Part shown: piece after piece, positions 1 to 19,324 of the stretch
How positions within the stretch are numbered: position 1 is the stretch's first letter
Layout of the letters: each line of letters opens with the position of its first letter
Virus record (IMG/VR): IMGVR_UViG_2778261570_000017
Location: 1-19,403 of that record
Length of the DNA stretch: 19,403 bases
Source: a virus
Lineage: Duplodnaviria > Heunggongvirae > Uroviricota > Caudoviricetes
Direction: 5' to 3' (one strand)
Notes under the pieces: generated by a model
The model's input: only the letters and a program-made list of their open reading frames with translations
Databases searched by the model: none
What the model was told of the DNA's origin: nothing
Program-made: the position numbers and the translations under genes

Positions 1-2
1 TT

Positions 3-65
3 ACAGGTATGGAACGCATTAAGGCAGTACGTGAAATTATTCGTGAACGGGGAAAAGCAAAATGA
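3..65 (+). CDS. 3' end of an upstream CDS (reading frame 3, ...TGMERIKAVREIIRERGKAK*), partial; possibly the primase partner of the downstream Rep
   Basis: Open frame runs in from the window edge and stops at TGA 63-65, overlapping the ATG at 62 (ATGA coupling) of the next gene. Identity not determinable from 21 residues. Confidence 0.4.
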   Translation, partial: TGMERIKAVREIIRERGKAK

Positions 66-1468
66 AACTGGCACCGAACGTAAAACTGTTACCGAAAGAT
101 AAACACACTGAGGCGGTTATTTTTGCGGGTGATAATGCTCACTCCTTTGCAGAACATTACATGATTGCACAGGCCAAAAAAGCAGGCGATCCCATCCCTC
201 CGGTTTACCTGGGCCGTTATCAGTTAAGCGAACTGGACAATTTACAGATTGTTGATGAAGGACGATACAGAGCAAAGGTCATACGCGCCGGAAACCTGGA
301 CGATATGCAGATGCTGACCATTGCCACCAAACTGGCGATCGCAGGTGTCCAGGAAGCACGGTTACTTTCAGAGAATTTCGAACTGCTGGAGGACTGGAGC
401 GAGCAACTACCGCGGCTTAAAGAAACCTGGGAACGCGGGGAAAGTCTGGTCATGAATGGTGGAAAGCGAAAAATCACACTTCCCATCTCATGGGGTTCTG
501 AGGGATTCGACGCGCAGCAAAGCTACGTAATTAAGGGGCTTATTCCGGCTGAGTCATTATGCAGCACCTACGGGGCCAGCGGTTCTTATAAATCGTTCCT
601 GGCTATTTCCTGGTCGTGCCATGTTGTCACAGGTATGGCATGGGGAGGCCGCAGGGTAAGTAAGGGCGCTGTTATCTATATCGCTGGCGAAGGCAGTATG
701 GGCGTAAAACGCCGCGTTAAGGCGTGGGAGATAACCCATGACAAGGTGGTTACGGATTTGTGCATCGTTAACGCGCCTGTTTTCCCTGCATCGCCTGACT
801 ATGTGGAGCAGGTTATCAGGACTGCCGGACTTGTTAAGAGCAGAACGGGCGAAAATGTGCGGCTGATTGTGATCGACACGCTGGCCCGTTGCTTTGGTGG
901 GAATGATGAAAATGATTCCCGTGATATGGGCGCATTTATCCAGGGGTGTGACGCGATAAAGCAGGCCACAGGGGCCACGGTACTGGTGGTTCACCATTCC
1001 GGCAAGGATGAAACAAAGGGGGCGCGAGGTTCCAGCGCATTCCGCGCTGCACTGGATGCAGAGTACCGAATCAGCCGGGAAAATTCAGACGTTACAGCAC
1101 TGGTGGCGGCGTGTACGAAGATGAAGGACGCAGAGGAGCCAAAAGAGAGTGCATACGATCTTAAAAGCGTGGAGGTGTTCACCGATACAGATGGCGAAGA
1201 GATTGTGTCCATGGTGGTGATTGACGTTCCCCGCGCCCCTGCTGAACTGGAGCGCATAGAGGAGGCCGGGAACAAGACGGAAAATCACACGGCTTTATGG
1301 GGTTGTATCCGGTCGCGTATACAGCATGGTGATAAATGTACGATCCCGCTGCTACGTGATGACATGAAAAAGCTGGGATATGACACAAAACACCTTAAAC
1401 GATGGTTAGCCAAACTGGAAAAAGACGGCGTGATTTGCGTCGATGGGGATGATGTTCACCCACTGTAA
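62..1468 (+). CDS. Replication ATPase/helicase, RecA-fold (RepA/AAA_25-like)
   Basis: 468-aa ORF with Walker A-like YGASGSYKS, Walker B-like hydrophobic stretch ending in Asp (RLIVIDTLARCF) and VLVVHHSGKD. Coupled to the upstream ORF and followed immediately by an iteron array. Confidence 0.6.
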   Translation: MKLAPNVKLLPKDKHTEAVIFAGDNAHSFAEHYMIAQAKKAGDPIPPVYLGRYQLSELDNLQIVDEGRYRAKVIRAGNLDDMQMLTIATKLAIAGVQEARLLSENFELLEDWSEQLPRLKETWERGESLVMNGGKRKITLPISWGSEGFDAQQSYVIKGLIPAESLCSTYGASGSYKSFLAISWSCHVVTGMAWGGRRVSKGAVIYIAGEGSMGVKRRVKAWEITHDKVVTDLCIVNAPVFPASPDYVEQVIRTAGLVKSRTGENVRLIVIDTLARCFGGNDENDSRDMGAFIQGCDAIKQATGATVLVVHHSGKDETKGARGSSAFRAALDAEYRISRENSDVTALVAACTKMKDAEEPKESAYDLKSVEVFTDTDGEEIVSMVVIDVPRAPAELERIEEAGNKTENHTALWGCIRSRIQHGDKCTIPLLRDDMKKLGYDTKHLKRWLAKLEKDGVICVDGDDVHPL

Positions 1469-1670
1469 AAAGTGGGCGTTAAAAGTGGGAATAGTGGGTA
1501 ATTTAACTGGAATTTAACAAAATCGCCCACTTTCCCACGTGTATACATCCCAAAAAGTGGGCACTAAAAAAATACTTATGAAACAGTACGATATAAAACC
1601 ACAAAATCCCTGGTGGGACGAAGTGGGAAACCATGAAAAGTGGGCAGAAAAAGTGGGCACAGGTGGGCGC
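1468..1670. repeat. Iteron array, (A)AGTGGG(C/A) repeated about 10 times; candidate replication origin
   Basis: AGTGGG at 1471, 1484, 1493, 1556, 1622, 1639, 1652; GGTGGG at 1612 and 1662; inverted copy CCCACT at 1526-1531. Lies directly 3' of the Rep gene. Confidence 0.6.
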
Positions 1671-1922
1671 ATGACAAGAAAAACCAGAGATAAGACAGCA
1701 CCAAAATATAAAGCGTTAGACATGACAGAGCACGCCTTAAAGGTGGCAATCAGAACGATAGACCGCCACGCCGGAGAAGGATACGCGAAAGCACATCCCG
1801 AACTGATAAGCGCATTCATGACCACGGCGGCGGCAAATTTTGCCACGCTGACAGAGCGGGAGATTGCCGAAGCGGAACAGGTGACAACCATCAACGTTAA
1901 AACCGGAGAACAGACAGCATGA
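1671..1922 (+). CDS. Small hypothetical protein (about 84 aa)
   Basis: The ORF track starts at 1539, but the N-terminal 44 codons are translated iteron repeats. The ATG at 1671 follows GGTGGGCGC. Stop TGA 1920-1922 overlaps the ATG of the next gene at 1919 (ATGA). Confidence 0.45.
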   Translation: MTRKTRDKTAPKYKALDMTEHALKVAIRTIDRHAGEGYAKAHPELISAFMTTAAANFATLTEREIAEAEQVTTINVKTGEQTA

Positions 1923-2341
1923 CAGCACAGATAGCGGCTTACGGGCGGCTGGTGGCTGACCCGCAGTTAAAGACCACCAGCAAGGGGACACAAATGGCGA
2001 TGGCGAGTATGGCGGTTCCCCTGCCGTGCAGCCAGGCAGATGACGGAACGGCGACGATGTGGTTATCCGTCCTGGCGTTTGGCAGACAGGCCGACGCACT
2101 GGCCAGACACCACAAAGGCGAACTGGTGAGCGTGGCGGGTAACATGCAGGTAAGCCAGTGGACAGGCCAGAACGGCGAAACGCGGCAGGGCTGGCAGGTT
2201 ATCGCAGACAGCGTAATCAGTGCGCGAACGGCGCGACCGGGCGGCAAAAAAGGTCAACAGGGCCAGGCTACTGACGCGCTGAACAGGGCAAAACAACAGG
2301 CGGGAAATGATGATCCGTACGGGGATAACATACCGTTTTAA
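1919..2341 (+). CDS. ssb: Single-stranded DNA-binding protein (SSB)
   Basis: 140 aa, OB-fold-like N-terminal region, Gly/Gln-rich linker and acidic C-terminal tail ...DDPYGDNIPF, matching the canonical SSB C-terminus D-D-D-I-P-F. Confidence 0.8.
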   Translation: MTAQIAAYGRLVADPQLKTTSKGTQMAMASMAVPLPCSQADDGTATMWLSVLAFGRQADALARHHKGELVSVAGNMQVSQWTGQNGETRQGWQVIADSVISARTARPGGKKGQQGQATDALNRAKQQAGNDDPYGDNIPF

Positions 2342-2358
2342 GAAACGAGTGACAGAAG

Positions 2359-2380
2359 CCGGGATTTTTCCCGGTTTTTT
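2359..2380 (+). terminator. Rho-independent terminator-like hairpin after ssb
   Basis: CCGGGA (2359-2364) / TCCCGG (2369-2374), 4-nt loop, followed by TTTTTT (2375-2380). Confidence 0.6.
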
Positions 2381-2455
2381 ACGGGTCCTCCCGGTGGAGT
2401 GGCCTTGCCACGGGGCGGGAGCGTCGCGGAAAACGGCTGATTTTTGAATTTTCAT
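2378..2455 (+). other. cos-like site copy 1 (cosQ-like TTTACGGGTCCT, 35-nt spacer, cosN-like 12-mer GGGCGGGAGCGT at 2413-2424)
   Basis: Recalled lambda cos junction is TTTACGGGTCCTTTCCGGTGATCCGACAGGTTACG|GGGCGGCGACCT|CGCGGG. Here the first 12 nt match exactly, the 35-nt distance to the GC-rich 12-mer is the same, and the ACG / CGCGG flanks match. Repeated at 4898-4978. Confidence 0.6.
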
Positions 2456-2609
2456 GGGACACCACCACATCAATTAACATGTTGAAAAATAAAATAAAAA
2501 TTGATTTTCACCTGTCCAATTTTGCTTTTTGTGGGACATCTGACCAGTTTGCAATTAATTGAAATATATAAATAAATCAGTTTTTCACCTGCCTGGTGGA
2601 GTTGCCTGT
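2456..2609. repeat. Two degenerate tandem units of about 77 bp, AT-rich, each with GGGACA..., a CAAT..ATTG-type palindrome and TTTTCACCTG(T/C)C
   Basis: Unit A 2456-2532, unit B 2533-2609. GGGACAcc at 2456 and GGGACAtc at 2533. TTTTCACCTGTCC 2505-2517 and TTTTCACCTGCC 2582-2593. Palindromes CAATTAACATGTTG 2471-2484 and CAATTAATTG 2552-2561. Confidence 0.5.
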
Positions 2610-2641
2610 ATCAAAACGTGTTCAGATGGCGGGATATTTAT

Positions 2642-2664
2642 GCCGGATTTTTTCCGGCTTTTTT
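2642..2664 (+). terminator. Rho-independent terminator-like hairpin
   Basis: GCCGGA (2642-2647) / TCCGGC (2653-2658), followed by TTTTTT (2659-2664). Nearly the same hairpin as at 2359-2380. Confidence 0.55.
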
Positions 2665-2765
2665 GCGTCTGAATCTGATTAATCTATTTTTATGATAGAA
2701 ATATGTTTATCTACCACTTTTATCGATCAATAATGATGCCCGTTAATCAAAACGGAGGCGGATTT

Positions 2766-2960
2766 ATGCCAGAGAACAACACCAGAAAGCCGGGTAAAAG
2801 TGCCACTGTGCACATAGACACCGGAACGATGGAGAAGATCGAACGCTATCAGCAGTTCATCAAAGAGAATCACCCGGGTATGCCAGTACCCACGAAAGGA
2901 CAAATCACACGCAGCGCGGTTGAATACTGGTACAAGGCAACGTTAGGAGCCTGGCTATGA
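2766..2960 (+). CDS. Small protein (about 64 aa), possible ribbon-helix-helix DNA-binding fold
   Basis: GGAGG at 2754-2758 lies 7 nt before the ATG at 2766; the ORF-track start at 2703 has no RBS. Predicted strand-helix-helix pattern (ATVHID / TMEKIERYQQFIKEN / GQITRSAVEYWYKA). Stop TGA 2958-2960 overlaps the ATG at 2957 of the capsid gene. Confidence 0.45.
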   Translation: MPENNTRKPGKSATVHIDTGTMEKIERYQQFIKENHPGMPVPTKGQITRSAVEYWYKATLGAWL

Positions 2961-4873
2961 AAACATGGTTTTCCATTAAGGCGGCGGATGTGCGTGGAAC
3001 GGTGGAAATATCCATCTATGAAGAAATTGGCGGCTTCGGTATTACCGCGAAGCAGTTCTCGGAAGATCTGAAAGCCCTTGGCGATGTTTCACATATCGAC
3101 CTACGGATCCATTCGCCTGGCGGTGACGTGTTTGAAGGCATCGCCATCTATAACCTGCTACGGAATCATCCGGCAGACATTACGGTTTATATCGATGGCG
3201 TGGCGGCTTCAATGGCTTCGGTCGTCGCAATGGCTGGCGATCGCGTTGTTATGCCGGAGAACGCCATGATGATGATCCATAAGCCGTGGGGGATCTCTGG
3301 CGGAAATGCTGGCGATATGCGTGATTATGCTGATTTGCTGGATAAAGTGGAAACCGTGTTAATCCCTGCTTATGCCAGAAAAACAGGCAAATCAGCACAG
3401 GAAATTGCCGCCATGCTGGAAGATGAAACCTGGATGGACGGGAAAGAATGCCTTAAGCACGGTTTTGCTGATGAATTGTTGCCATCTGTCAGAGCAATGG
3501 CGCGAATTGAATCGAAACGCACAGGAGATTTTTTACATATGCCGGAAACCATTAAGGGAATGATTACCCCGCCGAAATCACAGGCAAAAAACACCATTAC
3601 AGGCGACCAGGAGCGCATTAACGGCATTAAAGAAATTTTTAGCGTGTTCGGCAACCAGTACGACGGGATCAAAATGTCGTGCCTTGAAGATGCATCCTGT
3701 ACGCTGGAAATGGCCCGGGAACGTCTGCTTAACGAAATGGGTAAAAACCACACACCAACAAATAAAAATATCCCGTCTCATATTTATGCCGGAAACGGGA
3801 ACATAACAGGCGATGCGATTCGCCAGGGCCTTTATTCCCGTCTTGGGTATGAGCGTCCTGAGCGTGGCAATCCTTACGCGATGATGAGTCTTTTTGAAAT
3901 GGCCCAGGCGTCACTGGTTGATCGTGGTATCAGTGTTGGCGGTTTTTTAAATCGCTCGCAGGTCGTTAATGCAGCTTTTACACACAGCAGCAGTGATTTT
4001 TCTCATATTCTGGCTGGCGGTGCTGAAAAATCAGTGCTGAAAGGCTGGCAGGACAGCGGCGAAACGTTCCAGAAGTGGACGCGTAGCGGATCGCTTTCAA
4101 ACTTTCACGAGGCAAAACGCGTTGGCCTGAATGGTTTTTCAAAACTGGATAAAGTGCCGGAAGGCGCGGAATATAAATACATTACTACCAGTGACAAGGG
4201 CGTACCTATTGCGCTGGCCACATACGGGAATATTTTTTCTGTTACCCGCCAGGCCATTATTAACGATGACCTGACCCAGTTAACTACAATCCCCATGGCG
4301 ATGGGGCGTGCAGCCGCCAGAACAGTAGGTAATCTGGTGTATCTCCTGTTAACCGGCAATGGCAAATTCACGGATGGTAAGGCGCTATTCCATGCCGATC
4401 ATAAAAATCTTATTGCGAAGGATATGGACATGGAGGGGCTTAACGAAGCCCGTAAGCTGATGCGCCTCCAGGAGGACGCTAACGGTGATTCGCTGAATAT
4501 TACCCCCGCATTTGTCCTGGTCCCCGCCGCGCTGGAGTCTGCCGCACATCGCGCCATTCTGTCATCGTCATCACTCTTTCAGGTTGATGGTGAGGGCACT
4601 ATCAATCAGAACCCCGGCATCATTAACGTGGTGAAAGATATGGCTGAGGTTATTGTTGAGCCACGTCTTGATAAGAACAATAACAAGGAGTGGTATGTAG
4701 CCGCAGCGAAAGGGATGGACACGATAGAGGTCGCTTATCTTGATGGTATTGATACGCCATATCTTGAGGAGCAGGAGGGCTTTACTGTTGATGGTGTCGC
4801 CTGGAAGGTGCGCATAGATGCAGGTGTTGCGGCCCTCGATTATCGTGGACTACTGAAATCGAGTGGAGCATGA
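2957..4873 (+). CDS. Prohead protease (ClpP/S14-like) fused to HK97-fold major capsid protein, copy 1
   Basis: 638 aa. N-terminal about 190 aa carries protease motifs (HSPGGDVFEG, DGVAASMAS, MMIHKPWG); the C-terminal region is colinear and homologous along its full length with the second copy at 8636-10696. AGGAG RBS at 2944-2948. Confidence 0.85.
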   Translation: MKTWFSIKAADVRGTVEISIYEEIGGFGITAKQFSEDLKALGDVSHIDLRIHSPGGDVFEGIAIYNLLRNHPADITVYIDGVAASMASVVAMAGDRVVMPENAMMMIHKPWGISGGNAGDMRDYADLLDKVETVLIPAYARKTGKSAQEIAAMLEDETWMDGKECLKHGFADELLPSVRAMARIESKRTGDFLHMPETIKGMITPPKSQAKNTITGDQERINGIKEIFSVFGNQYDGIKMSCLEDASCTLEMARERLLNEMGKNHTPTNKNIPSHIYAGNGNITGDAIRQGLYSRLGYERPERGNPYAMMSLFEMAQASLVDRGISVGGFLNRSQVVNAAFTHSSSDFSHILAGGAEKSVLKGWQDSGETFQKWTRSGSLSNFHEAKRVGLNGFSKLDKVPEGAEYKYITTSDKGVPIALATYGNIFSVTRQAIINDDLTQLTTIPMAMGRAAARTVGNLVYLLLTGNGKFTDGKALFHADHKNLIAKDMDMEGLNEARKLMRLQEDANGDSLNITPAFVLVPAALESAAHRAILSSSSLFQVDGEGTINQNPGIINVVKDMAEVIVEPRLDKNNNKEWYVAAAKGMDTIEVAYLDGIDTPYLEEQEGFTVDGVAWKVRIDAGVAALDYRGLLKSSGA

Positions 4874-4880
4874 CAACAAG

Positions 4881-4903
4881 GGCGGCGATAGCCGCCTTTT
4901 TTT
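4881..4903 (+). terminator. Rho-independent terminator-like hairpin after capsid copy 1
   Basis: GGCGGC (4881-4886), loop GATA, GCCGCC (4891-4896), then TTTTTTT (4897-4903). Confidence 0.6.
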
Positions 4904-4978
4904 ACGGGTCCTCCCGGTGGAGTGGCCTTGCCACGGGGCGGGAGCGGCGCGGAAAAAGGCTAGTTTTTGCATTTTCAT
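4898..4978 (+). other. cos-like site copy 2 (cosQ-like TTTACGGGTCCT at 4901-4912, cosN-like GGGCGGGAGCGG at 4936-4947)
   Basis: Direct repeat of 2378-2455 with about 5 mismatches. Sits where lambda cos sits, roughly 190 bp upstream of the Nu1-like TerS start. Confidence 0.65.
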
Positions 4979-5132
4979 TCATCATCATCATCTTTTCAAT
5001 GCATTGAATTTAAACGAATTTTATTTTTAGTATGTTAATTTTGCGTGTTTTTTGGTCAACATATAACGCACTTTATAACGCTTTTTGAGAAGGTGTTCGC
5101 AAGATGCATGTTTAAAACATTCTGGAGCGGGT
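4979..5132. promoter_or_regulatory. cosB-like AT-rich region between cosN-like site and TerS (candidate TerS/IHF binding sites)
   Basis: Perfect palindrome CAATGCATTG at 4997-5006, about 50 bp after the cosN-like 12-mer (the same family of palindrome sits 47 and 128 bp after the cos copy 1 12-mer). Also tandem ATAACGC and near-palindrome ATGTTTAAAACAT. Confidence 0.4.
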
Positions 5133-5618
5133 ATGGATCGAGAACTGAAAAATCTGATGCTGAACATTAACCAACTGGCGGCGATAGCGGGAATATGTCG
5201 TCAGACTGCGGCGGCAAGGCTGAAAAACATCCAGCCAGCCGGAGGACATGACAAGCTGAAACTCTATCGGGTGACTGACATTCTGACCTGTTTTCTTGAT
5301 CTTCCCGTTCCGGCATCACTGGAAGAAATGGAGCCACATGACCGTAAGGCCTGGTATCAGTCTGAACGTGAGCGCCTCAAGTTCGAACAGGAAACGGCGC
5401 AACTCATACCCGCCGATGATGTGCGAAAAGAGATGGCTATATGGGCGGAAATCGTAAGCGAGGAACTGGCAAAACTCCCCAGTATTCTGGCACGTGATGC
5501 GGGGCTTAAACCGATGGCAGTAAACAGAGTGCAGTCAATTATTGACGATTTGTGTAATCAGATTATCAGCCGGATGGTAAAAAATGACGCAGTGAATGAG
5601 GATGTAAAACAGGCATGA
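5133..5618 (+). CDS. Terminase small subunit (lambda Nu1-like)
   Basis: GGAG 5 nt upstream of the ATG at 5133. N-terminal LNINQLAAIAGICRQTAAARL resembles the Nu1 winged-HTH region (recalled lambda Nu1 MEVNKKQLADIFGASIRTIQNW). Position immediately downstream of cos. Confidence 0.7.
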   Translation: MDRELKNLMLNINQLAAIAGICRQTAAARLKNIQPAGGHDKLKLYRVTDILTCFLDLPVPASLEEMEPHDRKAWYQSERERLKFEQETAQLIPADDVRKEMAIWAEIVSEELAKLPSILARDAGLKPMAVNRVQSIIDDLCNQIISRMVKNDAVNEDVKQA

Positions 5619-5864
5619 TAATGACTGGCGCCGTGATCCCCCGTGCTACCGGAATCAGACTACCAGAAGGCAAACAGAAGACCACGCAGTCGGGCAGCGT
5701 CATCGTGTTAATGCATGGCGGCGTATTCTGCTTTTAATTAATATTGCTACCTTTTTTCTTTTTTTATCGCTTAGGCAGGTACTAAATCTTGGACTATGTG
5801 AATGGGGTTACAACTAAATAGTACCTTATAATCATTTAGTTACCTTTTATTTACTTCTTCCTGG

Positions 5865-6977
5865 ATGGAAGGCCCCGCTGCGGCATATCAGACGCTGTCC
5901 CAGCTGGTCTATAAGTTGCTGACCGCCGAACAGGAATACGAGTCGACCGGAAGCGAAGAAACGCTCAAGACAGTCATCAACACCGACTGGGGATTACCTT
6001 ATCTTCCCCGGGCCAGCATGGAGCAACGAAAAAGCGAACTGCTTGAGCAGCGGGCAGAGCCTGTTCCTCCCCGAAGTGTGCCGGATGGCGTTAATTTCCT
6101 TGCGGCGACAGTGGATGTGCAGGCGGGACGTCATCGCCGTTTTGTGGTTCAGGTAACGGGCTATGGCAGTCGTGGCGAACGCTGGATAGTTGATCGTTAC
6201 AACATCACGCAGTCGCTGCGTTGTGACAATAACGGAGAAAGCCTGCGTATTGACCCTGCCGGTTATCCGGAGGACTGGGATGTTCTGCTGACGGATGTTT
6301 TTCATAAAGGCTGGCCGCTGGCTTCTGATCCTTCTCAACAAATGCGACTGATGGCAATGGCGGTGGACTCCGGCGGTGAAGACGGGGTCACTGATAATGC
6401 CTATAAATTCTGGCGTCGTTGCCGTCGTGATGGCCTTGGTAAACGTATTTACCTGTTTAAGGGCGACAGTATCCGTCGCGCAAAACTGATAACCCGTACA
6501 TTTCCGGATAACACCGGACGAACGGGGCGACGGGCGCAGGCTTCGGGTGATGTTCCACTCTGGCTCCTTCAGACGGATGCCCTGAAAGACCGGGTGAATA
6601 ACGCGTTATGGCGTGACTCGCCAGGTCCCGGCTATGTGCATTTTCCTGACTGGCTGGGGAGCTGGTTTTACGACGAACTGACGTATGAAGAGCGGAGCAG
6701 TGACGGAAAGTGGAGTAAGCCGGGTCGCGGTGCCAACGAAGCCTTTGACCTGATGGTGTATGCCGAGGCGCTGGTTATTCTGCATGGGTACGAGAAAATT
6801 CAGTGGCCGGATGCGCCGGAATGGGCATGCAGGGAAACCTGGCTGGAATACGTCAGTGACAACGCTGAGCAGGCTGTTCTGCCGGAACCAGTCTCTCTGC
6901 CTGCCAGAAAAAAGAAACGAAAAAAAGTGACGCCCGATGAGGATAACCCCTGGGTGACTTCCGGAGGATGGTTATGA
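5865..6977 (+). CDS. Terminase large subunit (lambda gpA-like), C-terminal nuclease domain only; N-terminally truncated, possibly a pseudogene
   Basis: 370 aa, colinear with roughly the C-terminal half of lambda gpA as recalled (ATVDVQAGRHRRFVVQVTGYGSRGERWIVDR vs AGIDSQLDRYEMRVWGWGPGEESWLIDR; ANEAFDLMVYAEAL vs RNEALDCFVYALAA). No Walker A segment, and only 246 bp lie between TerS and this ORF. No clear RBS. Confidence 0.75.
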   Translation: MEGPAAAYQTLSQLVYKLLTAEQEYESTGSEETLKTVINTDWGLPYLPRASMEQRKSELLEQRAEPVPPRSVPDGVNFLAATVDVQAGRHRRFVVQVTGYGSRGERWIVDRYNITQSLRCDNNGESLRIDPAGYPEDWDVLLTDVFHKGWPLASDPSQQMRLMAMAVDSGGEDGVTDNAYKFWRRCRRDGLGKRIYLFKGDSIRRAKLITRTFPDNTGRTGRRAQASGDVPLWLLQTDALKDRVNNALWRDSPGPGYVHFPDWLGSWFYDELTYEERSSDGKWSKPGRGANEAFDLMVYAEALVILHGYEKIQWPDAPEWACRETWLEYVSDNAEQAVLPEPVSLPARKKKRKKVTPDEDNPWVTSGGWL

Positions 6978-7186
6978 ATCAGAATGATATTGAAGCCATG
7001 ATCCAGCGTTATATCGATGCGGAAATGGCAGTGCTGGACGGAAAATCCGTCACCTTTAATGGTCAGCAAATGACCATGGAAAATCTGTCCGAGATCCGCC
7101 GGGGACGTCAGGAGTGGGAGCGGCGTCTTGCTGCCCTGACTGCGCGGCGACGGGGGAACCCGGGATATAAACTGGTGAGGTTCTGA
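6974..7186 (+). CDS. Head-tail joining protein (lambda gpW-like)
   Basis: About 70 aa. ATG 6974 overlaps the TerL stop (ATGA); stop overlaps the portal ATG at 7186 (TGATG). C-terminus ...RRRGNPGYKLVRF resembles lambda W ...RRRGPAGFYV. Confidence 0.6.
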   Translation: MNQNDIEAMIQRYIDAEMAVLDGKSVTFNGQQMTMENLSEIRRGRQEWERRLAALTARRRGNPGYKLVRF

Positions 7187-8691
7187 TGGCAATTCTGGAT
7201 GATGTGATTGGTGTTTTTTCTCCAGGCTGGAAAGCGGCGAGGTTGCGCTCAAGAGCGTTAATCCGCGCTTATGAGGCTGTGAAACCCACACGCACACACA
7301 AAGCCCGACGGGAAAACCGTTCTGCCGACCAGCTCAGTAAGTACGGGGCGGTTTCCCTGCGGGAGCAGGCCCGTTTTCTGGATATCAATCATGACCTCGT
7401 AATCGGCGTTTTCGACAAGCTTGAGGAGCGGGTGATTGGTGCAAAGGGGATCATTGTTGAACCCCAGCCATTACTGAAAAACGGTGGTGTGGCTACAGAG
7501 CTGGCAATGATTATCCGTCGTTTGTGGGCGGAATGGTCTGTCAGTCCGGATGTGACCGGGCAGCATACGCGCCCCATGCTCGAACGTCTGCTGTTGCGTA
7601 CCTGGTTACGTGATGGAGAAGTGTTTGCCCAGATGGTCAGAGGCGCAGGTGCCGGGCTGGCACGGACTGCCGGTGTGCCTTTCTGGCTTGAGGCAATGGA
7701 GCCTGATTTTGTGCCCATGCTCAGTGATGAGTCTGCGGGAATGAATCAGGGAGTTTTTCTGGATAAATGGGGCAGGCCGAAAAAATACCTGGTTTATAAA
7801 AATTATCCGGTTCCCGGGCGACAGAGCGAAACCAAAGAGATCGCCGCTGAAAATATGGTGCATCTGAAGTTTACCCGCCGGCTGCACCAGACGCGTGGTA
7901 CATCCATGTTGTCGGGTGTGCTGATACGGATCAGTGCACTTAAGGAGTACGAGGATTCTGAGTTGGTTGCAGCGCGTGTTGCTGCGGCTCTGGGGTTATA
8001 TATTCGTAAAGGAGATGGACAGGATTATGAGGAACCTGTGACAAATAAAGATAATGATCGGGAACTGCATATCACTCCCGGCATTATTTATGACGATCTG
8101 CGTAAGGGGGAAGATATTGGCATGGTCAAATCTGATCGGCCTAACCCTAATCTGGAAACTTTTCGTAATGGTCAGTTGCGGGCTATGGCGGCGGGCACTC
8201 GTCTGAGCTTTTCCAGTGCAGCACGTAACTATAACGGTACCTACAGTTCCCAGCGACAGGAGCTGGTTGAGTCCACCGATGGCTATCTGATCCTGCAGGA
8301 CTGTTTTATTGGTGCTGTAACCCGTCCGGTGTACCGGGCATGGCTGAATATGGTGATTGCCGCGGGGTTGCTGAAAATTCCGTCGGATGTGGATATGAAA
8401 ACGTTATATAACGCAACATATTCTGGCCCTGTGATGCCGTGGATCGACCCAGTCAAGGAGGCTGAAGCCTGGAAAATTCAGATCCGGGGTGGTGCGGCGA
8501 CAGAATCAGACTGGGTGCGCGCCAGTGGTCGTAATCCGGATGACGTCAAACGTCGGCGCAAAGCTGAGATTGATGAAAACCGCAGGCTGGAACTGGTATT
8601 TGATACCGATCCGGCAAGTGATAAAGGAGGTGGTAATGCTGAAACAGAACGCGTGGTTCCGCGGCGAACCGAAGGCCAGCCTGAAGAATAA
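7186..8691 (+). CDS. Portal protein
   Basis: 501 aa, in the canonical position between W and the protease-capsid gene and translationally coupled to W. Confidence 0.7.
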   Translation: MAILDDVIGVFSPGWKAARLRSRALIRAYEAVKPTRTHKARRENRSADQLSKYGAVSLREQARFLDINHDLVIGVFDKLEERVIGAKGIIVEPQPLLKNGGVATELAMIIRRLWAEWSVSPDVTGQHTRPMLERLLLRTWLRDGEVFAQMVRGAGAGLARTAGVPFWLEAMEPDFVPMLSDESAGMNQGVFLDKWGRPKKYLVYKNYPVPGRQSETKEIAAENMVHLKFTRRLHQTRGTSMLSGVLIRISALKEYEDSELVAARVAAALGLYIRKGDGQDYEEPVTNKDNDRELHITPGIIYDDLRKGEDIGMVKSDRPNPNLETFRNGQLRAMAAGTRLSFSSAARNYNGTYSSQRQELVESTDGYLILQDCFIGAVTRPVYRAWLNMVIAAGLLKIPSDVDMKTLYNATYSGPVMPWIDPVKEAEAWKIQIRGGAATESDWVRASGRNPDDVKRRRKAEIDENRRLELVFDTDPASDKGGGNAETERVVPRRTEGQPEE

Positions 8692-10696
8692 TTCCTGGTT
8701 CAGAATGAAGGCGGGTCATAAAAGTGATGCGGATATTTATATCTATGACGAGATTGGTTTTTGGGGTGTTACGGCGAAACAGTTTGTCAGTGATCTGAAT
8801 GCGCTGGGCAATATTACCCACATTAATCTCCATATCAATTCACCGGGTGGCGATGTCTTTGAAGGCATCGCCATTTTTAATGCGCTGAAAAATCACGGAG
8901 CGTCCATCACTGTTTATGTGGATGGCGTTGCCGCATCCATGGCATCGGTCATTGCAATGGTGGGGGATCCCGTCATCATGCCGGAAAATGCATTCATGAT
9001 GATACATAAACCATGGGGAGTGAGTGGTGGCGATGCGGATGATATGCGCGATTATGCTGACCTGCTTGATAAAGTTGAGGCGGTCCTGTTGCCTGCTTAT
9101 GCGCAAAAAACCGGAAAAACGACAGATGAAATTGCTGCCATGCTGAAAGATGAAACCTGGATGTCCGGAGCTGAATGTCTGGCACACGGATTTGCTGACC
9201 AGGTGACACCGAAAGTTAAGGCAATGGCATGCATTCAGTCAAAACGAACAGAGGAATTTAAAAAAATGCCAGAATCCATCCGAAATATGATTATTCCGCC
9301 ACGCAACAGTGCAACGCGTGAACCTGAAAACAAAAATACTGCATCTCAGACACAGGAGCAGACTACGGCTCAGGTTGTCACAACCGCGACCATTGCGAAT
9401 GCGTCTTCCGCAGATGAAAGCAGTATCCGTGCACAGGTGCTGGCTGAGCAAAAAGCACGCGTGAGTGGTATTAATGACCTGTTTGGTATGTTTGGCGGGC
9501 GTTATCAGACATTGCAGGCCAGTTGCCTTTCCGATCCGGAGTGCTCGCTTGAGCAGGCCCGTGAGAAATTACTTAACGAAATGGGTAAGGAATTTTCACC
9601 ATCAAATAAAAACACCCCGTCCCATATTTATGCCGGCAACGGTAATTTTGTGGGAGACGGGATCCGACAGGCGCTGATGGCGCGCGCCGGATTTGCTGAG
9701 CGTGAGCAGGATAACGTCTATAACGGGATGACCCTGCGTGAATATGCCCGAATGTCACTGACAGAGCGTGGTATTGGGGTTTCCGGGTATAACCCGATGC
9801 AGATGGTGGGGGCAGCGTTCACCCACAGCACGTCTGACTTCGGTAATATTCTGTTAGATGTTGCGAACAAAGCCATTCTGCAGGGCTGGGAAGAAGCGCC
9901 TGAAACCTACGAACAGTGGACCCGAAAAGGTCAGCTGTCTGATTTTAAAATCGCTCATCGTGTGGGTATGGGGGGCTTCAGTTCTCTGCGTCAGGTGCGT
10001 GAGGGGGCGGAATATAAGTACGTCACCACCGGAGATAAACAGGCCACGATTGCACTGGCGACCTATGGCGAACTGTTCAGCATCACCCGCCAGGCCATTA
10101 TCAACGATGATCTGAATATGCTGACCGATGTTCCGATGAAACTGGGGCGTGCGGCGAAATCCACGATTGCCGATCTGGTTTATGCCATTCTGACATCTAA
10201 CCCGAAAATCTCCACGGATAATGTGAGCCTGTTCGATAAAGCGAAACATGCAAACGTACTGGAGAGCGCAGCAATGGACGTGGCATCGCTGGATAAAGCC
10301 CGCCAGTTGATGCGCGTTCAGAAAGAAGGTGAGCGTCATCTGAATATTCGCCCTGCGTTCGTACTGGTACCGACGGCGATGGAGTCTGTTGCTAACCAGG
10401 TTATTCGCTCCTCAAGTGTCAAGGGGGCTGACATTAACGCCGGTATTATTAACCCGGTGAAAGATTTTGCGACCGTTATTGCAGAGCCGCGCCTTGATGA
10501 TAACAGCCAGACCACCTTTTATCTGGCTGCGGCGAAAGGTACGGATACCATCGAAGTGGCTTATCTCAATGGGGTGGATACGCCATATATTGATCAGATG
10601 GAGGGCTTCAGCGTGGACGGCGTGACAACGAAAGTGCGTATTGACGCCGGTGTTGCACCAGTTGATCACCGCGGTCTGGTGAAATGTACGGCGTAA
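8636..10696 (+). CDS. Prohead protease (ClpP/S14-like) fused to HK97-fold major capsid protein, copy 2 (canonical head position)
   Basis: Strong RBS AAGGAGGTGG at 8624-8633 before the ATG at 8636; the ORF-track start at 8489 lies inside the portal gene. Same architecture as copy 1, plus a T/Q/A-rich low-complexity insertion of about 45 aa. Confidence 0.85.
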   Translation: MLKQNAWFRGEPKASLKNNSWFRMKAGHKSDADIYIYDEIGFWGVTAKQFVSDLNALGNITHINLHINSPGGDVFEGIAIFNALKNHGASITVYVDGVAASMASVIAMVGDPVIMPENAFMMIHKPWGVSGGDADDMRDYADLLDKVEAVLLPAYAQKTGKTTDEIAAMLKDETWMSGAECLAHGFADQVTPKVKAMACIQSKRTEEFKKMPESIRNMIIPPRNSATREPENKNTASQTQEQTTAQVVTTATIANASSADESSIRAQVLAEQKARVSGINDLFGMFGGRYQTLQASCLSDPECSLEQAREKLLNEMGKEFSPSNKNTPSHIYAGNGNFVGDGIRQALMARAGFAEREQDNVYNGMTLREYARMSLTERGIGVSGYNPMQMVGAAFTHSTSDFGNILLDVANKAILQGWEEAPETYEQWTRKGQLSDFKIAHRVGMGGFSSLRQVREGAEYKYVTTGDKQATIALATYGELFSITRQAIINDDLNMLTDVPMKLGRAAKSTIADLVYAILTSNPKISTDNVSLFDKAKHANVLESAAMDVASLDKARQLMRVQKEGERHLNIRPAFVLVPTAMESVANQVIRSSSVKGADINAGIINPVKDFATVIAEPRLDDNSQTTFYLAAAKGTDTIEVAYLNGVDTPYIDQMEGFSVDGVTTKVRIDAGVAPVDHRGLVKCTA

Positions 10697-10719
10697 ACGT
10701 CGCAGACAACAACGCTGAT

Positions 10720-10772
10720 GGCCCGTAAGGGCTTTTTTTGTACCTGAAATCAGCCCCGTTCAGGGGGCTTTG
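10720..10772 (+). terminator. Two consecutive hairpins after capsid copy 2 (attenuator/terminator-like)
   Basis: GCCC-GTAA-GGGC followed by TTTTTTT (10720-10739), then AGCCCC / GGGGCT hairpin (10752-10769). Confidence 0.45.
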
Positions 10773-10783
10773 CGGAGGCAGTT

Positions 10784-11107
10784 ATGGCAAAGAATTTTGT
10801 GGAAGACGGGAAAACGGTGGAGATTGTCGCTGGCGCAAATATCAGTAGCGGAGAGCTGGTACAGGTGGGCGATATTTTTGCTGTGGCACTGACCGATATT
10901 GCAAAAGGCGAAATTGGGGACGGCATGACTGAAGGTGTATTTATGCTGCCGAAACTGAAAACGGATGATATGAAAACCGGTAAGAAGGTTTATCTGAAGT
11001 CCGGAAAAGTTCAGCTGACTAACAGCGGCTCTGATCCGCTGGTCGGGGTTGTCTGGGCAGATGCCGGAACCAGTGCAGAAGAAGTGCCGGTAAAACTCAA
11101 TGTCTGA
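10784..11107 (+). CDS. Small head protein, DUF2190-like (possible decoration or head-completion protein)
   Basis: 107 aa, GGAGG at 10774-10778, located directly after the major capsid gene. Family assignment is from recollection. Confidence 0.45.
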   Translation: MAKNFVEDGKTVEIVAGANISSGELVQVGDIFAVALTDIAKGEIGDGMTEGVFMLPKLKTDDMKTGKKVYLKSGKVQLTNSGSDPLVGVVWADAGTSAEEVPVKLNV

Positions 11108-11375
11108 TCCCTTTTCCCGGCTGGCAGCGCGTATGGATGCTATCACGGTCAGAAAGATGGGAAAGACAGCCTCGATTAATGATGTCGATATGACCGTGAT
11201 CCCGGGAGAAACACTGGCAGAGCTGAATGCTCTGTCCGGACCTGCGGTCTCTCTGGTTGTGTTTTCTTCGGGATACCGCCCACGGCGCGGGGATCGCGTT
11301 GTTTATGACGGACAACAATGGACGGTCACACGGCATGAACGCTTTAACGGTAAGCCAATGATCTTTATTGAGTAA
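11100..11375 (+). CDS. Head-tail connector / head completion protein (lambda gpFII-like)
   Basis: 91 aa. ATG overlaps the preceding stop. C-terminal RRGDRVVYDGQQWTVTRHE resembles lambda FII RRGDTLTIGEENFWVDRVS. Confidence 0.5.
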   Translation: MSDPFSRLAARMDAITVRKMGKTASINDVDMTVIPGETLAELNALSGPAVSLVVFSSGYRPRRGDRVVYDGQQWTVTRHERFNGKPMIFIE

Positions 11376-11386
11376 AGAGGTGTGGG

Positions 11387-11965
11387 ATGAAGGGGCTTGA
11401 GAATGCCATCCGCAATCTGAACAGCCTTGATACCCGTATGGTGCCACAGGCCAGCGCATGGGCGATAAACCGTGTGGCACAGAAAGCGGTCTCGGTTGCC
11501 ACCCGGCAGGTTGCCGGGAATACCGTTGCGGGAGATAACCAGGTGAAAGGGATCCCCCTGAAACTGGTACGTCAGCGTGTCCGGGTGTTTAAAGCCAGTC
11601 CGTCAGGAAAAATGACGGCCAGGATCCGCGTTAACCGGGGCAATCTGCCCGCCATTAAGCTGGGAACAGCCCGGGTCAGACTGGCCCGGCGTGGTGGAAA
11701 ACTGCAGTACCGTGGCAGTGTGCTGAAGGTGGGTAAATATCTTTTCCGGGATGCGTTTATTCAGCAACTGGCGAATGGTCGCTGGCATGTGATGCGGCGT
11801 ATTGATGGCAAAAATCGTTACCCCATTGATGTGGTGAAAATCCCGCTGTCCGGACCGCTGACACAGGCATTTGAAGATGCCCGCGACCGCATCATTGCTG
11901 CGGAAATGCCGAAACAGCTGGGGTATGCACTGAAACAACAACTGAGGTTATGGCTGACCCGATGA
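11387..11965 (+). CDS. Tail completion protein (lambda gpZ-like)
   Basis: 192 aa, the same length as lambda Z; position between FII-like and U; RBS AGAGGTG upstream. Confidence 0.6.
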   Translation: MKGLENAIRNLNSLDTRMVPQASAWAINRVAQKAVSVATRQVAGNTVAGDNQVKGIPLKLVRQRVRVFKASPSGKMTARIRVNRGNLPAIKLGTARVRLARRGGKLQYRGSVLKVGKYLFRDAFIQQLANGRWHVMRRIDGKNRYPIDVVKIPLSGPLTQAFEDARDRIIAAEMPKQLGYALKQQLRLWLTR

Positions 11966-12363
11966 ACCGACATACACAAATCCGCCAGGCCGTACTGGCA
12001 CGCCTTCGGGAACAGTGTGGAGACAGCGCCACGTTTTTTGACGGGCTTCCGGCATTTATTGATGCGCAGGAACTGCCTGCCGTGGCGGTGTGGCTGAGTG
12101 ATGCTCAGTACACCGGAAAAATGACGGATGAAGATGACTGGCAGGCTGTTCTGCATATTGCCGTCTTCATCCGGGCACAGGCACCGGATTCAGAGCTGGA
12201 TATGTGGATGGAGAGCACCATTTTTCCTGCCCTGAATGATATACCGGCACTTTCCGGACTCATCGACACCCTGATCCCACTCGGTTTTAACTATCAACGT
12301 GATAATGAGATGGCCACCTGGGCGATGGCGGAAATCACGTACCAGATCACGTACACGAATTAA
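11962..12363 (+). CDS. Tail terminator protein (lambda gpU-like)
   Basis: Strong similarity to recalled lambda U (TFFDGLPAFIDAQELPAVAVWLSDAQYTGKMTDEDDWQAVLHIAVF vs TFFDGRPAVFDEADFPAVAVYLTGAEYTGEELDSDTWQAELHIEVF). ATG 11962 overlaps the Z stop (ATGA); the alternative ATG at 11950 is less likely. Confidence 0.85.
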   Translation: MNRHTQIRQAVLARLREQCGDSATFFDGLPAFIDAQELPAVAVWLSDAQYTGKMTDEDDWQAVLHIAVFIRAQAPDSELDMWMESTIFPALNDIPALSGLIDTLIPLGFNYQRDNEMATWAMAEITYQITYTN

Positions 12364-12373
12364 GGAGGTGGCA

Positions 12374-13117
12374 ATGACCACACCAAATCCACTGGCAAAG
12401 ACGAAAGGTGCGGGGACGACGTTCTGGATGTATACCGGCAACGGCGATGCGTTTGCGAACCCTTTGTCGGACACTGACTGGCTGCGTCTTGCGATGGTGA
12501 AGGATCTGCAGCCTGGCGAAATGACCGCTGATGCAGAAGATGACACTTATCTCGATGATGAAGATGCAGACTGGAAAACGACAACCCAGGGGCAGAAATC
12601 CGTCGGTGATACTTCGGCGACGCTGGCCTGGCGTCCGGGTGACAGCGGGCAGAAAAAACTGGTTCAGTTGTTCGACTCCGGTGAAGTCTGCGCGTTTCGT
12701 ATCAAATATCCCAACGGCACTGTTGATGTTTTCCGCGGCTGGCTGAGCTCACTGGGTAAAACCATTGCCTCAAAAGACGTGATGACCCGCACTGTGAAAA
12801 TCAGCGGTGTGGGGCGTCCGTATCTGGCAGAGGAAGGCACTGAAACCGTGAGCGTTACCGGGCTGACGGTGGCACCGGCATCTGCCAGTGTAAAAGTGGG
12901 AGCAACCACCACGCTGACCTTTACAGTAAAACCTGACGGAGCCAGTGACAAAGCGATCAGTGTGCATTCGACAGATCCACAGACTGCCACGGTGACCCTG
13001 AACGGGCTTGTGGCCACGGTGAAAGGCGTGAAGCAGGGCAGTGTCAGCATTGTGGGCATGACTTCTGACGGCGATTTTGTGGCCGTGGCTGCGGTGGCTG
13101 TCAGCGCCGCAGGTTAA
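12374..13117 (+). CDS. Major tail protein (lambda gpV-like) with C-terminal Ig-like domain
   Basis: RBS AAGGAGGTG before the ATG at 12374. N-terminus MTTPNPLAKTKGAGTTFWMYTGNGDAFANPLSD matches lambda V [33 protein letters not shown]. The ORF-track start at 12299 lies inside U. Confidence 0.9.
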   Translation: MTTPNPLAKTKGAGTTFWMYTGNGDAFANPLSDTDWLRLAMVKDLQPGEMTADAEDDTYLDDEDADWKTTTQGQKSVGDTSATLAWRPGDSGQKKLVQLFDSGEVCAFRIKYPNGTVDVFRGWLSSLGKTIASKDVMTRTVKISGVGRPYLAEEGTETVSVTGLTVAPASASVKVGATTTLTFTVKPDGASDKAISVHSTDPQTATVTLNGLVATVKGVKQGSVSIVGMTSDGDFVAVAAVAVSAAG

Positions 13118-13137
13118 CAGGACGATACTCATCATTT

Positions 13138-13161
13138 GCCCCGGTTATCCGGGGCTTTTTT
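13138..13161 (+). terminator. Strong hairpin plus T-run between V and G (terminator/attenuator)
   Basis: GCCCCGG (13138-13144), loop TTAT, CCGGGGC (13149-13155), then TTTTTT (13156-13161). Confidence 0.65.
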
Positions 13162-13177
13162 GCAAGTGGAGAACATG

Positions 13178-13564
13178 ATGTTTCTGAAACAGGGCACGTT
13201 TAATTATGAAAAGCAGTCCGTGGTGCTCAGTGAGCTGTCCGGGCTGCAGAGAATTGAATATCTGGCGTTTGTTCAGCAGCGAACGGCAAAGTTTGATGCC
13301 GGGGAGGGAGAACTGCCGGAGGCTGAACGACAGATTGCTTTTCTGCGGATGGGGATGGATATCAATGCCTGGCTGGTTTCCCGCTCACTGTGGAATGCGG
13401 ATCAGTCTAAGGATGTAGAGACGCTTTGCGCATCCGTTATTACAACATGGTCGTATGATGCCCTGGGTGCGGGGGCGGAGATGGTTCTGTCGCTGAGCGG
13501 TATGGGGGCCATTGATAATGCCGGGGATGATGAGCATGAGGTGCTGACGCCGGAAAAGTCCTGA
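13178..13564 (+). CDS. Tail assembly chaperone (lambda gpG-like)
   Basis: MFLKQGTFNYEKQSVVLSELSGLQRIEYLAF resembles lambda G MFLKTESFEHNGVTVTLSELSALQRIEHLAL. GGAG 6 nt before the ATG at 13178. The ORF-track start at 13136 runs through the terminator hairpin. Confidence 0.85.
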   Translation: MFLKQGTFNYEKQSVVLSELSGLQRIEYLAFVQQRTAKFDAGEGELPEAERQIAFLRMGMDINAWLVSRSLWNADQSKDVETLCASVITTWSYDALGAGAEMVLSLSGMGAIDNAGDDEHEVLTPEKS

Positions 13565-13902
13565 CGCGGGAAATGCAGTTTGTCATGCGGCTTGCCCGGG
13601 AGTTCCGGCGGGCAGACTGGCGGCGGATGCTGTCGGAAATGTCAGCCACTGAGCTTGGTGAGTGGGGCGATTATTTCCGGATGCAGAGCTTCAGTGATGT
13701 GTGGATGGATGCGCAGTTTGCCTCGCTGAAGGCATTGATCGTGAGAATGGTGTCCGGCAGCAGTGATGCTGCGGTGGCTGATTTCAGCCTTTTACCGGAA
13801 GAGAACGGGATACCGGAGCGAACGGACGAAGAACTGATGCATCTTGGGGAAGGTATTTCCGGAGGTGTGCGTTATGGACCAGATAGCCAACCTGGTCATT
13901 GA
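13540..13902 (+). CDS. gpT-like segment, expressed as the G-T fusion by -1 frameshift (-1 frame relative to G)
   Basis: Open frame in the -1 frame relative to G overlapping the G 3' end, typical of the conserved G/G-T tail chaperone pair. Confidence 0.6.
   Translation, partial: GADAGKVLTREMQFVMRLAREFRRADWRRMLSEMSATELGEWGDYFRMQSFSDVWMDAQFASLKALIVRMVSGSSDAAVADFSLLPEENGIPERTDEELMHLGEGISGGVRYGPDSQPGH
13552..13558 (+). promoter_or_regulatory. Candidate -1 programmed frameshift site GGAAAAG producing the G-T fusion
   Basis: The -1 frame is open only from 13540 and G stops at 13562-13564, so the shift must occur in 13540-13561. The only slippery candidate there is G-GAA-AAG (lambda uses G-GGA-AAG). 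Confidence 0.5.
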
Positions 13903-17268: not shown

Positions 17269-17277
17269 GAGGCTCTG

Positions 17278-17976: not shown

Positions 17977-17980
17977 ACCC

Positions 17981-19263: not shown

Positions 19264-19282
19264 TGAAAAATGTTTTATGTGA

Positions 19283-19302
19283 AACCGCCTGCGGGCGGTT
19301 TT
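19283..19302 (+). terminator. Hairpin between I and J (terminator/attenuator-like)
   Basis: AACCGCC (19283-19289), loop TGCG, GGCGGTT (19294-19300), followed by TT. Confidence 0.4.
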
Positions 19303-19324
19303 GTCGTTTATGGAGCGTGAGGAA

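Follow-up and report, generated by a model that had tools for sequence, protein, structure and literature searches.

Two lambda-type cos sites around a capsid gene

We analyzed positions 1 to 19,403 of the IMG/VR virus record IMGVR_UViG_2778261570_000017 (Caudoviricetes). In this stretch, referred to as the window, a capsid gene is bracketed by two direct copies of a sequence resembling the cohesive-end site (cos) of phage lambda. The copies are called cos1 and cos2, and cos1 lies directly 3′ of a gene for a single-stranded DNA-binding protein (SSB). The features that define the two cores are as follows.

2349..2380, forward strand: terminator hairpin of the ssb operon, whose T-run enters cos1 (fold -17.7 kcal/mol, z = -3.35)
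2375..2455, forward strand: cos1 core, with a cosQ-like GGGTCCT at 2383-2389, the cosN 12-mer at 2413-2424 and the shared spacer to +43 (from the repeat and from phage alignments)
4878..4904, forward strand: terminator hairpin of the capsid gene, whose T-run enters cos2 (fold -16.2 kcal/mol, z = -4.06)
4898..4978, forward strand: cos2 core, with a cosQ-like GGGTCCT at 4906-4912 and the overhang 12-mer at 4936-4947 (from the repeat alignment)

The direct repeat is 81 nt long (2375-2455 and 4898-4978), and 76 of the 81 positions match without gaps (94% identity, BLAST E = 4e-30). A sequence-only reading of the window had described a repeat of ~80 bp with about five mismatches, each copy preceded by its own terminator hairpin, and both descriptions agree with these measurements. 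Both copies contain TTTACGGGTCCT (2378-2389 and 4901-4912), which is identical to the cosQ region of lambda (NC_001416), and a G-rich 12-mer begins 35 nt after the start of TTTACGGGTCCT in both, a spacing equal to that in lambda. The 12-mers are GGGCGGGAGCGT at 2413-2424 in cos1 and GGGCGGGAGCGG at 4936-4947 in cos2; their sole difference is base 12, and each is flanked by ACG and CGCGG, as is GGGCGGCGACCT in lambda. The comparison with NC_001416 thus bore out the lambda-like cosQ start, the 35-nt spacing and the flanked 12-mer that the sequence-only reading had described. The cosN pattern ACG/GGGCGG..../CGCGG is common to both copies, and the variable positions are confined to 7-12, as in natural lambdoid phages. 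Furthermore, the cos regions of the lambdoid phages mEp460, phi458, HannyBb and others are 86-91% identical to the repeat, and the genome records of cdtI and Tritos start at the base aligned with window position 2413 (cdtI begins GGGCGGGAGCGTCGCGG). Because of the cosQ/cosN homology, the equal spacing and the phage records that start at the 12-mer, both repeats are assigned by sequence to the lambda-type cos sites. A cosQ, a cosN with a CG-flanked overhang and a cosB are present in both copies, the cosB of cos1 lacking an adjacent terminase small-subunit gene (terS).

The 12-mers do differ at their last base, as had been noticed earlier, but the obstacle expected from unlike cohesive ends is not a real one: base 12 of the overhang varies freely between copies across the family, and in lambda, chromosomes whose cohesive ends are mismatched at positions 9 and 12 remain viable, either allele being inherited (PMC4669245). 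A promoter scan gave no excess over the shuffled expectation.

A satellite inserted in a prophage terL gene

Genome RM8082 has a ~10-kb island at tRNA-Pro that ends at the chromosomal yejO; its right part is the block that extends from the helicase gene to just beyond terS. The gene order of this island is integrase (int), helix-turn-helix (HTH), icd, DUF4222, helicase/primase, ssb, cos1, a small open reading frame (ORF), a fusion of ClpP protease and major capsid protein, cos2, terS and another small ORF. Complete relatives of the satellite have the int, HTH, icd, DUF4222 and helicase/primase genes and measure ~10.2 kb in total. In SCU-125 (NZ_CP051700.1) and in an isolate from a dog, this island separates two parts of a prophage terminase large-subunit gene (terL), the 5′ part annotated as 'missing C-terminus' and the 3′ part as 'missing N-terminus'. 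The complete composites have a prophage cos and terS upstream of the satellite integrase, which falls beyond the window. In the window, the prophage terL resumes at 5862 and is 99.93% identical to the intact terL of locus L005 from nt 988 onward; the ~747 nt that appear 'missing' compared with intact prophages are the terL 5′ part left of the satellite. The att core CTGGATGGAAGG, namely CTGGATG(G/T)AGGG, is found at 5861-5872, and the intact site is conserved in L005 and cdtI. Because terL is split in the composites and resumes at 5862, and because the block is free-standing at tRNA-Pro, we place window ~1-5860 as the right-hand ~5.8 kb of a ~10-kb satellite of the phage-inducible chromosomal island (PICI) type, inserted at codon ~329 of the terL of a lambdoid prophage. 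Both cos copies, the capsid cassette, terS and the replication genes are accordingly assigned to satellite DNA on sequence grounds. The genes and segments are listed below.

62..1468, forward strand: satellite replication helicase of the RepA/AAA_25 type (Pfam AAA_25, E = 2e-42; 'helicase RepA family protein' in the RM8082 and SCU-125 satellites)
1919..2341, forward strand: satellite SSB, the last gene of the replication zone (Pfam SSB, E = 9e-16; gene order kept in relatives)
2703..2960, forward strand: small ORF of phrog_4934, unknown function, translationally coupled to the capsid gene, start probably internal (PHROG, E = 1e-48)
2957..4873, forward strand: satellite fusion of ClpP protease and major capsid protein (Pfam CLP_protease and Phage_capsid_4)
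5133..5618, forward strand: satellite terS (Pfam DUF1441, E = 6e-36)
5615..5740, forward strand: 41-codon truncated copy of a conserved 94-aa satellite gene, phrog_1561, unknown function (PHROG match)
5741..5872, forward strand: satellite right arm and attR (comparison of attL, attR and the intact site)
5862..6977, forward strand: 3′ part of the helper prophage terL from codon ~330, nuclease domain only (Pfam GpA_nuclease, 5865-6977)
7186..10696, forward strand: lambda-type portal gene of the helper prophage and its own ClpP/capsid fusion gene (Pfam)

The sequence-only reading had placed cos2 ~190 bp upstream of terS and cos1 just after a replication module, and both positions stand (the cosN of cos2 is 197 nt from the terS start at 5133); what did not stand is that both belong to one phage genome, the genes being those of a satellite. 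The comparison with PICI-like satellites pointed in the right direction, as the PICI gene block is there: the window holds the helicase, ssb and late zone, the relatives hold int, HTH and the replicon, and the virion gene set is partial. A capsid-forming PICI, as had also been proposed, is not what is found. The element contains no portal, adaptor, terL or tail gene, and its virion genes are only the ClpP-capsid fusion and terS.

The window contains two paralogous ClpP/capsid fusions, at 2957-4873 and 8687-10696, which are 5.7 kb apart and share 56% amino-acid identity. The satellite capsid is 93-99.7% identical among satellites and ~56% identical to every phage fusion examined, whereas the phage fusions are ~88% identical to each other. 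The satellite capsid is thus placed by sequence in an old, satellite-specific lineage. An origin of the cassette from a cdtI-type phage together with the cos1 flank was considered and rejected, since none of the phage fusions examined is closer to the satellite capsid than the others (~56% in each case). The small ORF at 2703-2960 is 92-94% identical to that of satellites whose capsid is only 63% identical (the 63% tier described below; L143 6747-7001), and 36% identical to that of L006, whose capsid is 98% identical. The breakpoints of this mosaicism between small ORF and capsid lie near the cos sites.

The two sites differ in their cosB flanks

The segments to the right of the two cores are as follows.

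2456..2641, forward strand: cosB-like flank of cos1, of the cdtI/HannyBb class, with two TTTTCACCTG repeats and a dead remnant of a terS start (class B by clustering)
2642..2666, forward strand: second terminator-like hairpin, which closes the cos1 module (hairpin folding)
4979..5132, forward strand: cosB flank of cos2, class A (96% identical to the cosB of the intact prophage PSS-15)

The two copies are near-identical through +43, counted from the first overhang base, after which similarity is lost completely. In lambda, the TerS-binding element R3 is at bp 50-65, and its spacing to cosN is strictly constrained (PMC9026076). Because the identity ends at +43, just before the position of R3 in lambda, cos1 and cos2 appear to be alike in what the large subunit reads, namely cosQ, the nicking site cosN and the spacer up to +43, and to differ in the cosB read by the small subunit.

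The cos1 flank in L001, L002 and L006 aligns with the complete cosB of cdtI and HannyBb, up to a mutated remnant of the terS start codon; that of the window has 76-77% identity to cdtI 1-204 and to HannyBb. Two direct repeats in the window (2482-2514 and 2559-2591) end in TTTTCACCTG, are 77 nt apart and are conserved in cdtI and HannyBb; for TerS proteins of the DUF1441 class, these repeats are candidate binding (R-like) elements. At cos2, a live terS follows a flank that has 96-100% identity to the cosB of intact PSS-15-type prophages. The TerS of the satellite is a mosaic: residues 1 to ~95, which form the DNA-binding half, are nearly identical to the TerS of PSS-15-type phages, and the C-terminal half, which is particular to satellites, is conserved across the four that were compared.

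The two phage classes resemble each other in TerL (84%), in the capsid fusion (88%), in the terL att core and in cosQ/cosN, whereas the N-terminal regions of their TerS proteins are unrelated. Of 5,426 E. coli genomes, 737 carry the cosB and terS of the cdtI type; few intact prophages are of the exact PSS-15 type. Thus, from these alignments, the partner of cos2 is the terS of the satellite itself, which matches the cosB class of cos2 in its DNA-binding half, and cos1 appears to copy the cos of a second, abundant helper class (cdtI/HannyBb) with an unrelated TerS DNA-binding region.

The 94-aa protein of phrog_1561 follows terS in relatives (e.g., L001 23322-23606). Satellites of the 63% tier have no terS; in them, it comes directly after cos2 at the usual distance of the terS start (L143 9148-9426). 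This protein is a candidate packaging-specificity factor. The truncated copy after the satellite terS had been considered as a terL 5′ stub or TerS decoy; it has no TerL similarity and belongs to phrog_1561, so this idea was dropped.

Conservation of the bracket among relatives

Approximately 160 loci encoding relatives of the satellite capsid were tested for a direct repeat around the gene, and all cos-like sites were mapped. The loci were sorted into tiers by capsid protein identity, and the counts refer to loci with enough flanking sequence.

Tier of at least 91%: bracket in 20/26, with a spacing of 2,505-2,540 bp, plus 3.35 kb in L111; the other six have the downstream site only
63% tier (E. 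coli, largely Shiga-toxin-producing E. coli): bracket in 17/17, with a different cos sequence and a spacing of 2,536-2,540 bp
70-79% tier: bracket in 0/26; downstream site only (none detected in L067)
Tier of 58% or less (phage-type): bracket in 0/~90

A cos just 3′ of the capsid gene, at the position of cos2, was present in all satellite-tier loci checked except L067. The searches made for further copies and for single-copy relatives, as the sequence-only reading had proposed, returned copies in phage or satellite contexts in every case and some satellites with cos2 only; L110 lacks exactly the segment corresponding to 2363-2652, which is the cos1 module between two similar hairpins. Of 5,426 complete E. 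coli genomes, 157 and 143 (together ~300, ~5%) have cassette matches of the two bracket-bearing lineages that cover at least 80% of the query.

The flanks of the bracketing sites from +44 to +183 were clustered. All 38 pairs were heterotypic and none was homotypic (38/38 and 0), in four class combinations. In the 63% tier, the cos2 flank is 85-89% identical to those of Stx2a-converting and VT1-Sakai-type phages, and the cos1 flank is 91.5% identical to those of CP-1639 and 1720a-02. A single cosB class flanks cos1 in one lineage and cos2 in another. The module after cos2 also varies and may be a DUF1441 terS, a Nu1-type terS, no terS or Rpp. In L094 and L099 (6402-9892), cos1 is followed by a cos2 with the overhang GGGCGGCAGACG and a lambda Nu1-type terS, and then by an inverted third cos. 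This layout appears from its sequence to be a hybrid of those of the window and of the satellite EcCICFT073, and such variants link the two designs.

Natural derivatives without the capsid cassette

A synthetic junction, in which the ssb side of cos1 was joined to the terS side of cos2, was searched in 5,426 genomes. Contiguous matches were obtained in two of them, in independent contexts and with one cos left between ssb and terS, and a third genome carried a partial deletion. In Z1323CEC0001, the satellite is at tRNA-Pro, agrees with that of the sister strain Z1323CEC0009 in Int, SSB, TerS and the downstream protein, and lacks exactly the small ORF and the capsid gene. In Z1323CEC0009, the cos1 overhang is GGGCGGGAGCGG and the cos2 overhang is GGGCGGGCGT, with a different flank. 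The junction in Z1323CEC0001 consists of the cos1 left arm and the cos1 overhang, followed by cos2 sequence within the next 9 bp. In 2017.18.02CC, in which the satellite is at another chromosomal site, the diagnostic bases are of the cos1 type up to overhang base 12 and of the cos2 type from +26. Both cassette-less cases thus switch within 9 or 14 bp immediately right of the overhang, and a 51-bp tract of perfect identity left of the junction went unused in L171. Because the crossover lies just right of the overhang, these junctions suggest that terminase cut both sites.

In L173 (ETEC1716), both cos sites are kept 634 bp apart (3325-4068), and the sequence corresponding to window 2736-4721, most of the capsid cassette, is lost.

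Proposed access to two helper classes and its alternatives

The identity and anatomy of the two sites, their satellite context, the conservation and heterotypy of the bracket and the deletion products are observed. From them we infer nicking at both sites, the pairing of each site with a TerS and a benefit to fitness. The reading that we favor, with a rough probability of 60%, is that cos1 and cos2 are two functional cos sites giving the satellite access to two helper classes. Packaging of satellite concatemers would start at cos2 with the satellite TerS or the TerS of a PSS-15-type helper, together with the helper TerL, and at cos1 with the TerS of a cdtI-type helper. Two start sites would widen the set of usable helpers. 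Termination in lambda is independent of cosB (PMC4669245), and with such cosB-blind termination a run begun at one site may stop at the second. If it went from cos2 to the next cos1, the product would be a molecule without the capsid cassette, closed via its cohesive ends, and in this model the rare cassette-less derivatives would arise because of such runs.

Several results weigh against this reading. cos1 is dispensable in nature, as only cos2 is present in 6/26 close relatives and in the whole 70-79% tier. Many of the loci are closely related, so that the 38 pairs amount to some four independent combinations from two deep lineages, and homotypic pairs may be missing because of instability, in that a longer repeat would recombine away, rather than through selection for two specificities. 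The cos1 flank of the window diverges from cdtI and the other class-B flanks at +44 to +100 (2456-2515), the segment equivalent to R3. Z1323CEC0009 shares this variant, and no phage counterpart of it was found in the phage collection. The C-terminal half of lambda TerS contacts TerL; that of the satellite TerS is unlike any phage TerS examined, which bears on the recruitment of helper TerL. As for the deletion products, L171 and L172 are not strict parent and offspring (left flanks 99.25-99.3% and right flanks 99.96% identical), and homologous recombination falling in the short tract would have a rough chance of a few percent across the two events. Finally, removal of one of the two cos sites of EcCICFT073 raised its transfer (PMC6092414), so a second cos is not necessarily beneficial.

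The alternative that survives best, which we consider unlikely but still worth weighing, is that cos1 is a functionless leftover of a captured phage left arm running from cos through the capsid gene, in which terS to portal were later lost, cos1 being kept by hitch-hiking and by gene conversion with cos2. The dead terS start after the cosB of cos1 would fit such a history, and capture of late genes followed by loss is documented for these satellites (PMC10111431). The lack of cos1 in some close relatives and in the 70-79% tier is also as expected. So are the mean core identities, 91% within an element, 85-86% between elements for cos1-cos1 and cos1-cos2 and 89% for cos2-cos2, since gene conversion predicts greater likeness within an element. 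However, the capsid gene is anciently diverged from phage genes (56%), the bracket is kept in two lineages with 63% capsid identity, each with other phage-matched cosB classes, and the deletion junctions suggest that cos1 is cut. The sequence-only reading had likewise offered copy 1 as a relic of acquiring a foreign capsid module; this fits poorly with an intact cosQ-cosN, a full phage-type cosB and the conservation of the bracket.

With a lower chance, the cos-bracketed 2.5-kb capsid unit might be a module mobilized by terminase, in which cutting and cohesive-end joining excise or insert the cassette and thereby shuffle capsid and terS/cosB modules among satellites and helpers, with cos sites as the points of exchange. 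Each burst would then give capsid-gene-bearing and capsid-gene-free satellite progeny. This is compatible with the data because the junctions are at the nick position, a cosB class swaps position, the small ORF is mosaic and the module after cos2 is variable.

A slightly less credible proposal is a start/stop device, in which packaging begins at one cos and ends at the other, thereby fitting concatemer lengths (nL, nL +/- 2.5 kb) or yielding progeny with and without the capsid gene. It would account for the tightly kept spacing (2,505-2,540 bp) despite differing lengths of the gene and upstream spacer between lineages, and both cosB-independent termination and the existence of deletion derivatives agree with it. 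However, the two overhangs of one element differ in sequence and length in the 63% tier, L094 and L172 (10-11 vs 11-12 nt), so that ends from different sites would anneal poorly; such differences favor two independent sites rather than an obligatory start/stop pair. Cassette-less forms are also rare, 2-3 genomes against ~300. Moreover, L is ~10.2 kb, from which we infer, partly after PMC6092414, that four copies fit a lambda-size head with no extra site.

A single lambdoid phage genome with an abnormal extra cos, its 2.5-kb cassette excluded from the main genome or packaged apart, was the arrangement put forward by the sequence-only reading; it is refuted by the genome comparisons and thus very improbable. 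The local gene order alone (replication genes, cos, capsid, cos, terS, 'terL', portal) would allow it. However, the terL lacks its first ~329 codons, which lie upstream of the satellite integrase in complete composites, and the same block is free-standing as a 10-kb island at tRNA-Pro; the satellite sits in the terL of a separate prophage, which resumes at 5862. Separate packaging, for instance in a very small capsid, has no support and runs contrary to head filling: terminal cos cleavage in lambda needs a nearly full head, and the 2.5-kb unit would for this reason not be packaged alone. Terminase has also been inferred to skip closely spaced cos sites (PMC6092414).

A generic intergenic repeat of the chromosome with no role in packaging is an explanation that nothing found here favors and that can practically be dismissed, since every copy was found in a phage or satellite context, at the cos position by terS or a satellite capsid gene, and Rfam had no match within 2200-5900.

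Relation to known satellites and to lambda

The framework of cos-type PICIs, helper-embedded PICIs (HE-PICIs) and the double cos of EcCICFT073 is known; what is new here is the conserved direct bracket, its two phage-matched cosB classes and the natural deletion products. The finding extends a known satellite strategy and is incremental; it does not describe a new kind of element. In the literature searched, no published direct, heterotypic cos bracket around a PICI capsid gene was found, which is no proof of absence; PICI cos sites were reviewed by Murialdo and Feiss without a discussion of double ones.

EcCICFT073, the model cos-type PICI of Gram-negative bacteria (Fillol-Salom 2018 and 2019), resembles the window element in having int, an alpA-type HTH, icd, DUF4222, primase/helicase, ssb, a small ORF, a capsid gene and cos. 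It has two cos sites with phage-like cosQ/cosN and two different cosB, both of which function when cloned; one is required for transfer and is recognized via a PICI-specific cosB by a complex of Rpp and TerS, and it is deletion of the second that raises transfer (PMC6092414, PMC6739421). When located in the CFT073 genome, these sites proved to be inverted and separated by ~0.7 kb; they follow the capsid and decoration genes and flank a single gene with a weak TerS-like HTH, presumably rpp. In the window element, by contrast, the sites are direct, 2.5 kb apart and placed around the capsid gene. EcCICFT073 relies on Rpp together with its PICI-specific cosB and lacks a terS, whereas the window element has a DUF1441 terS and both its cosB flanks copy phage classes; tblastn found no Rpp homologue in the window, L001 or L006. 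The capsid of EcCICFT073 is a lambda E-type gene accompanied by a decoration gene, in contrast to the ClpP-capsid fusion of the window element. The capsid gene of EcCICFT073 is dispensable for transfer and interference.

HE-PICIs were described by Tommasini, Mageeney and Williams (2023), with gene A (terL) among 14 insertion sites (PMC10111431). The window element shares with them its zone organization, the captured capsid gene and the insertion in helper terL (codon ~329). One shared cos-like segment was reported in the model element of that study, and no direct cos pair around the capsid gene (PMC10111431). Capsid-forming PICIs (cf-PICIs) are, like the window element, cos-type Gram-negative satellites with their own HK97-fold capsid protein and protease. 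According to Alqurainy et al. (bioRxiv 10.1101/2022.09.08.507074), they encode all proteins that make and fill capsids and take only tails from the helper, whereas the window element has the protease/capsid fusion and terS only. SaPIbov5 and SaPIbov4 also carry the cos of their helper, SaPIbov5 with the capsid homologue Ccm and SaPIbov4 reportedly with two putative cos sites (PMC6092414), although their lineage and sequences are unrelated.

The window sites correspond to the lambda cos in their cosQ motif, in its 35-nt spacing to a 12-base overhang flanked by CG, and in where the TerS-binding region lies. They differ in that the TerS of lambda is Nu1 and that of the window belongs to the DUF1441 class, whose R/IHF sites are undefined. 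In older work on lambda with two cos sites, the segment between them was lost. The behavior of the Feiss laboratory's tandem-cos constructs in lambda is like that proposed here, with cosB-specific initiation, cosB-independent termination and tolerated overhang mismatches (PMC4669245, PMC9026076). The double cos of lambda is a laboratory duplication, whereas that of the window is a natural and conserved feature of a satellite.

Cos-type PICIs occur commonly in E. coli, Shiga-toxin-producing strains among them, and influence phage spread and gene transfer. The present pattern offers a testable answer to the question of the second cos, first noted in EcCICFT073, namely that one satellite would carry the packaging signals of two helper classes. 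The model also predicts a by-product, the terminase-mediated loss of the capsid cassette, and such loss is seen in natural genomes. For annotation, such prophage/satellite regions should not be treated as one phage, and predictions of packaging ends based on cos should expect several sites per composite.

Two minor observations concern single genes. The ORF at 1539-1922, upstream of ssb, matches phrog_1231 (unknown function), for which relatives annotate a shorter gene of 246-252 nt. In L120 (1-13587; IMG/VR 2534681659_000014), one satellite is nested in another: the inserted satellite, which carries a 78%-type capsid gene, interrupts a 93%-type capsid gene in its ClpP domain, an arrangement that fits the published HE-PICI site C:CLP_protease:110.

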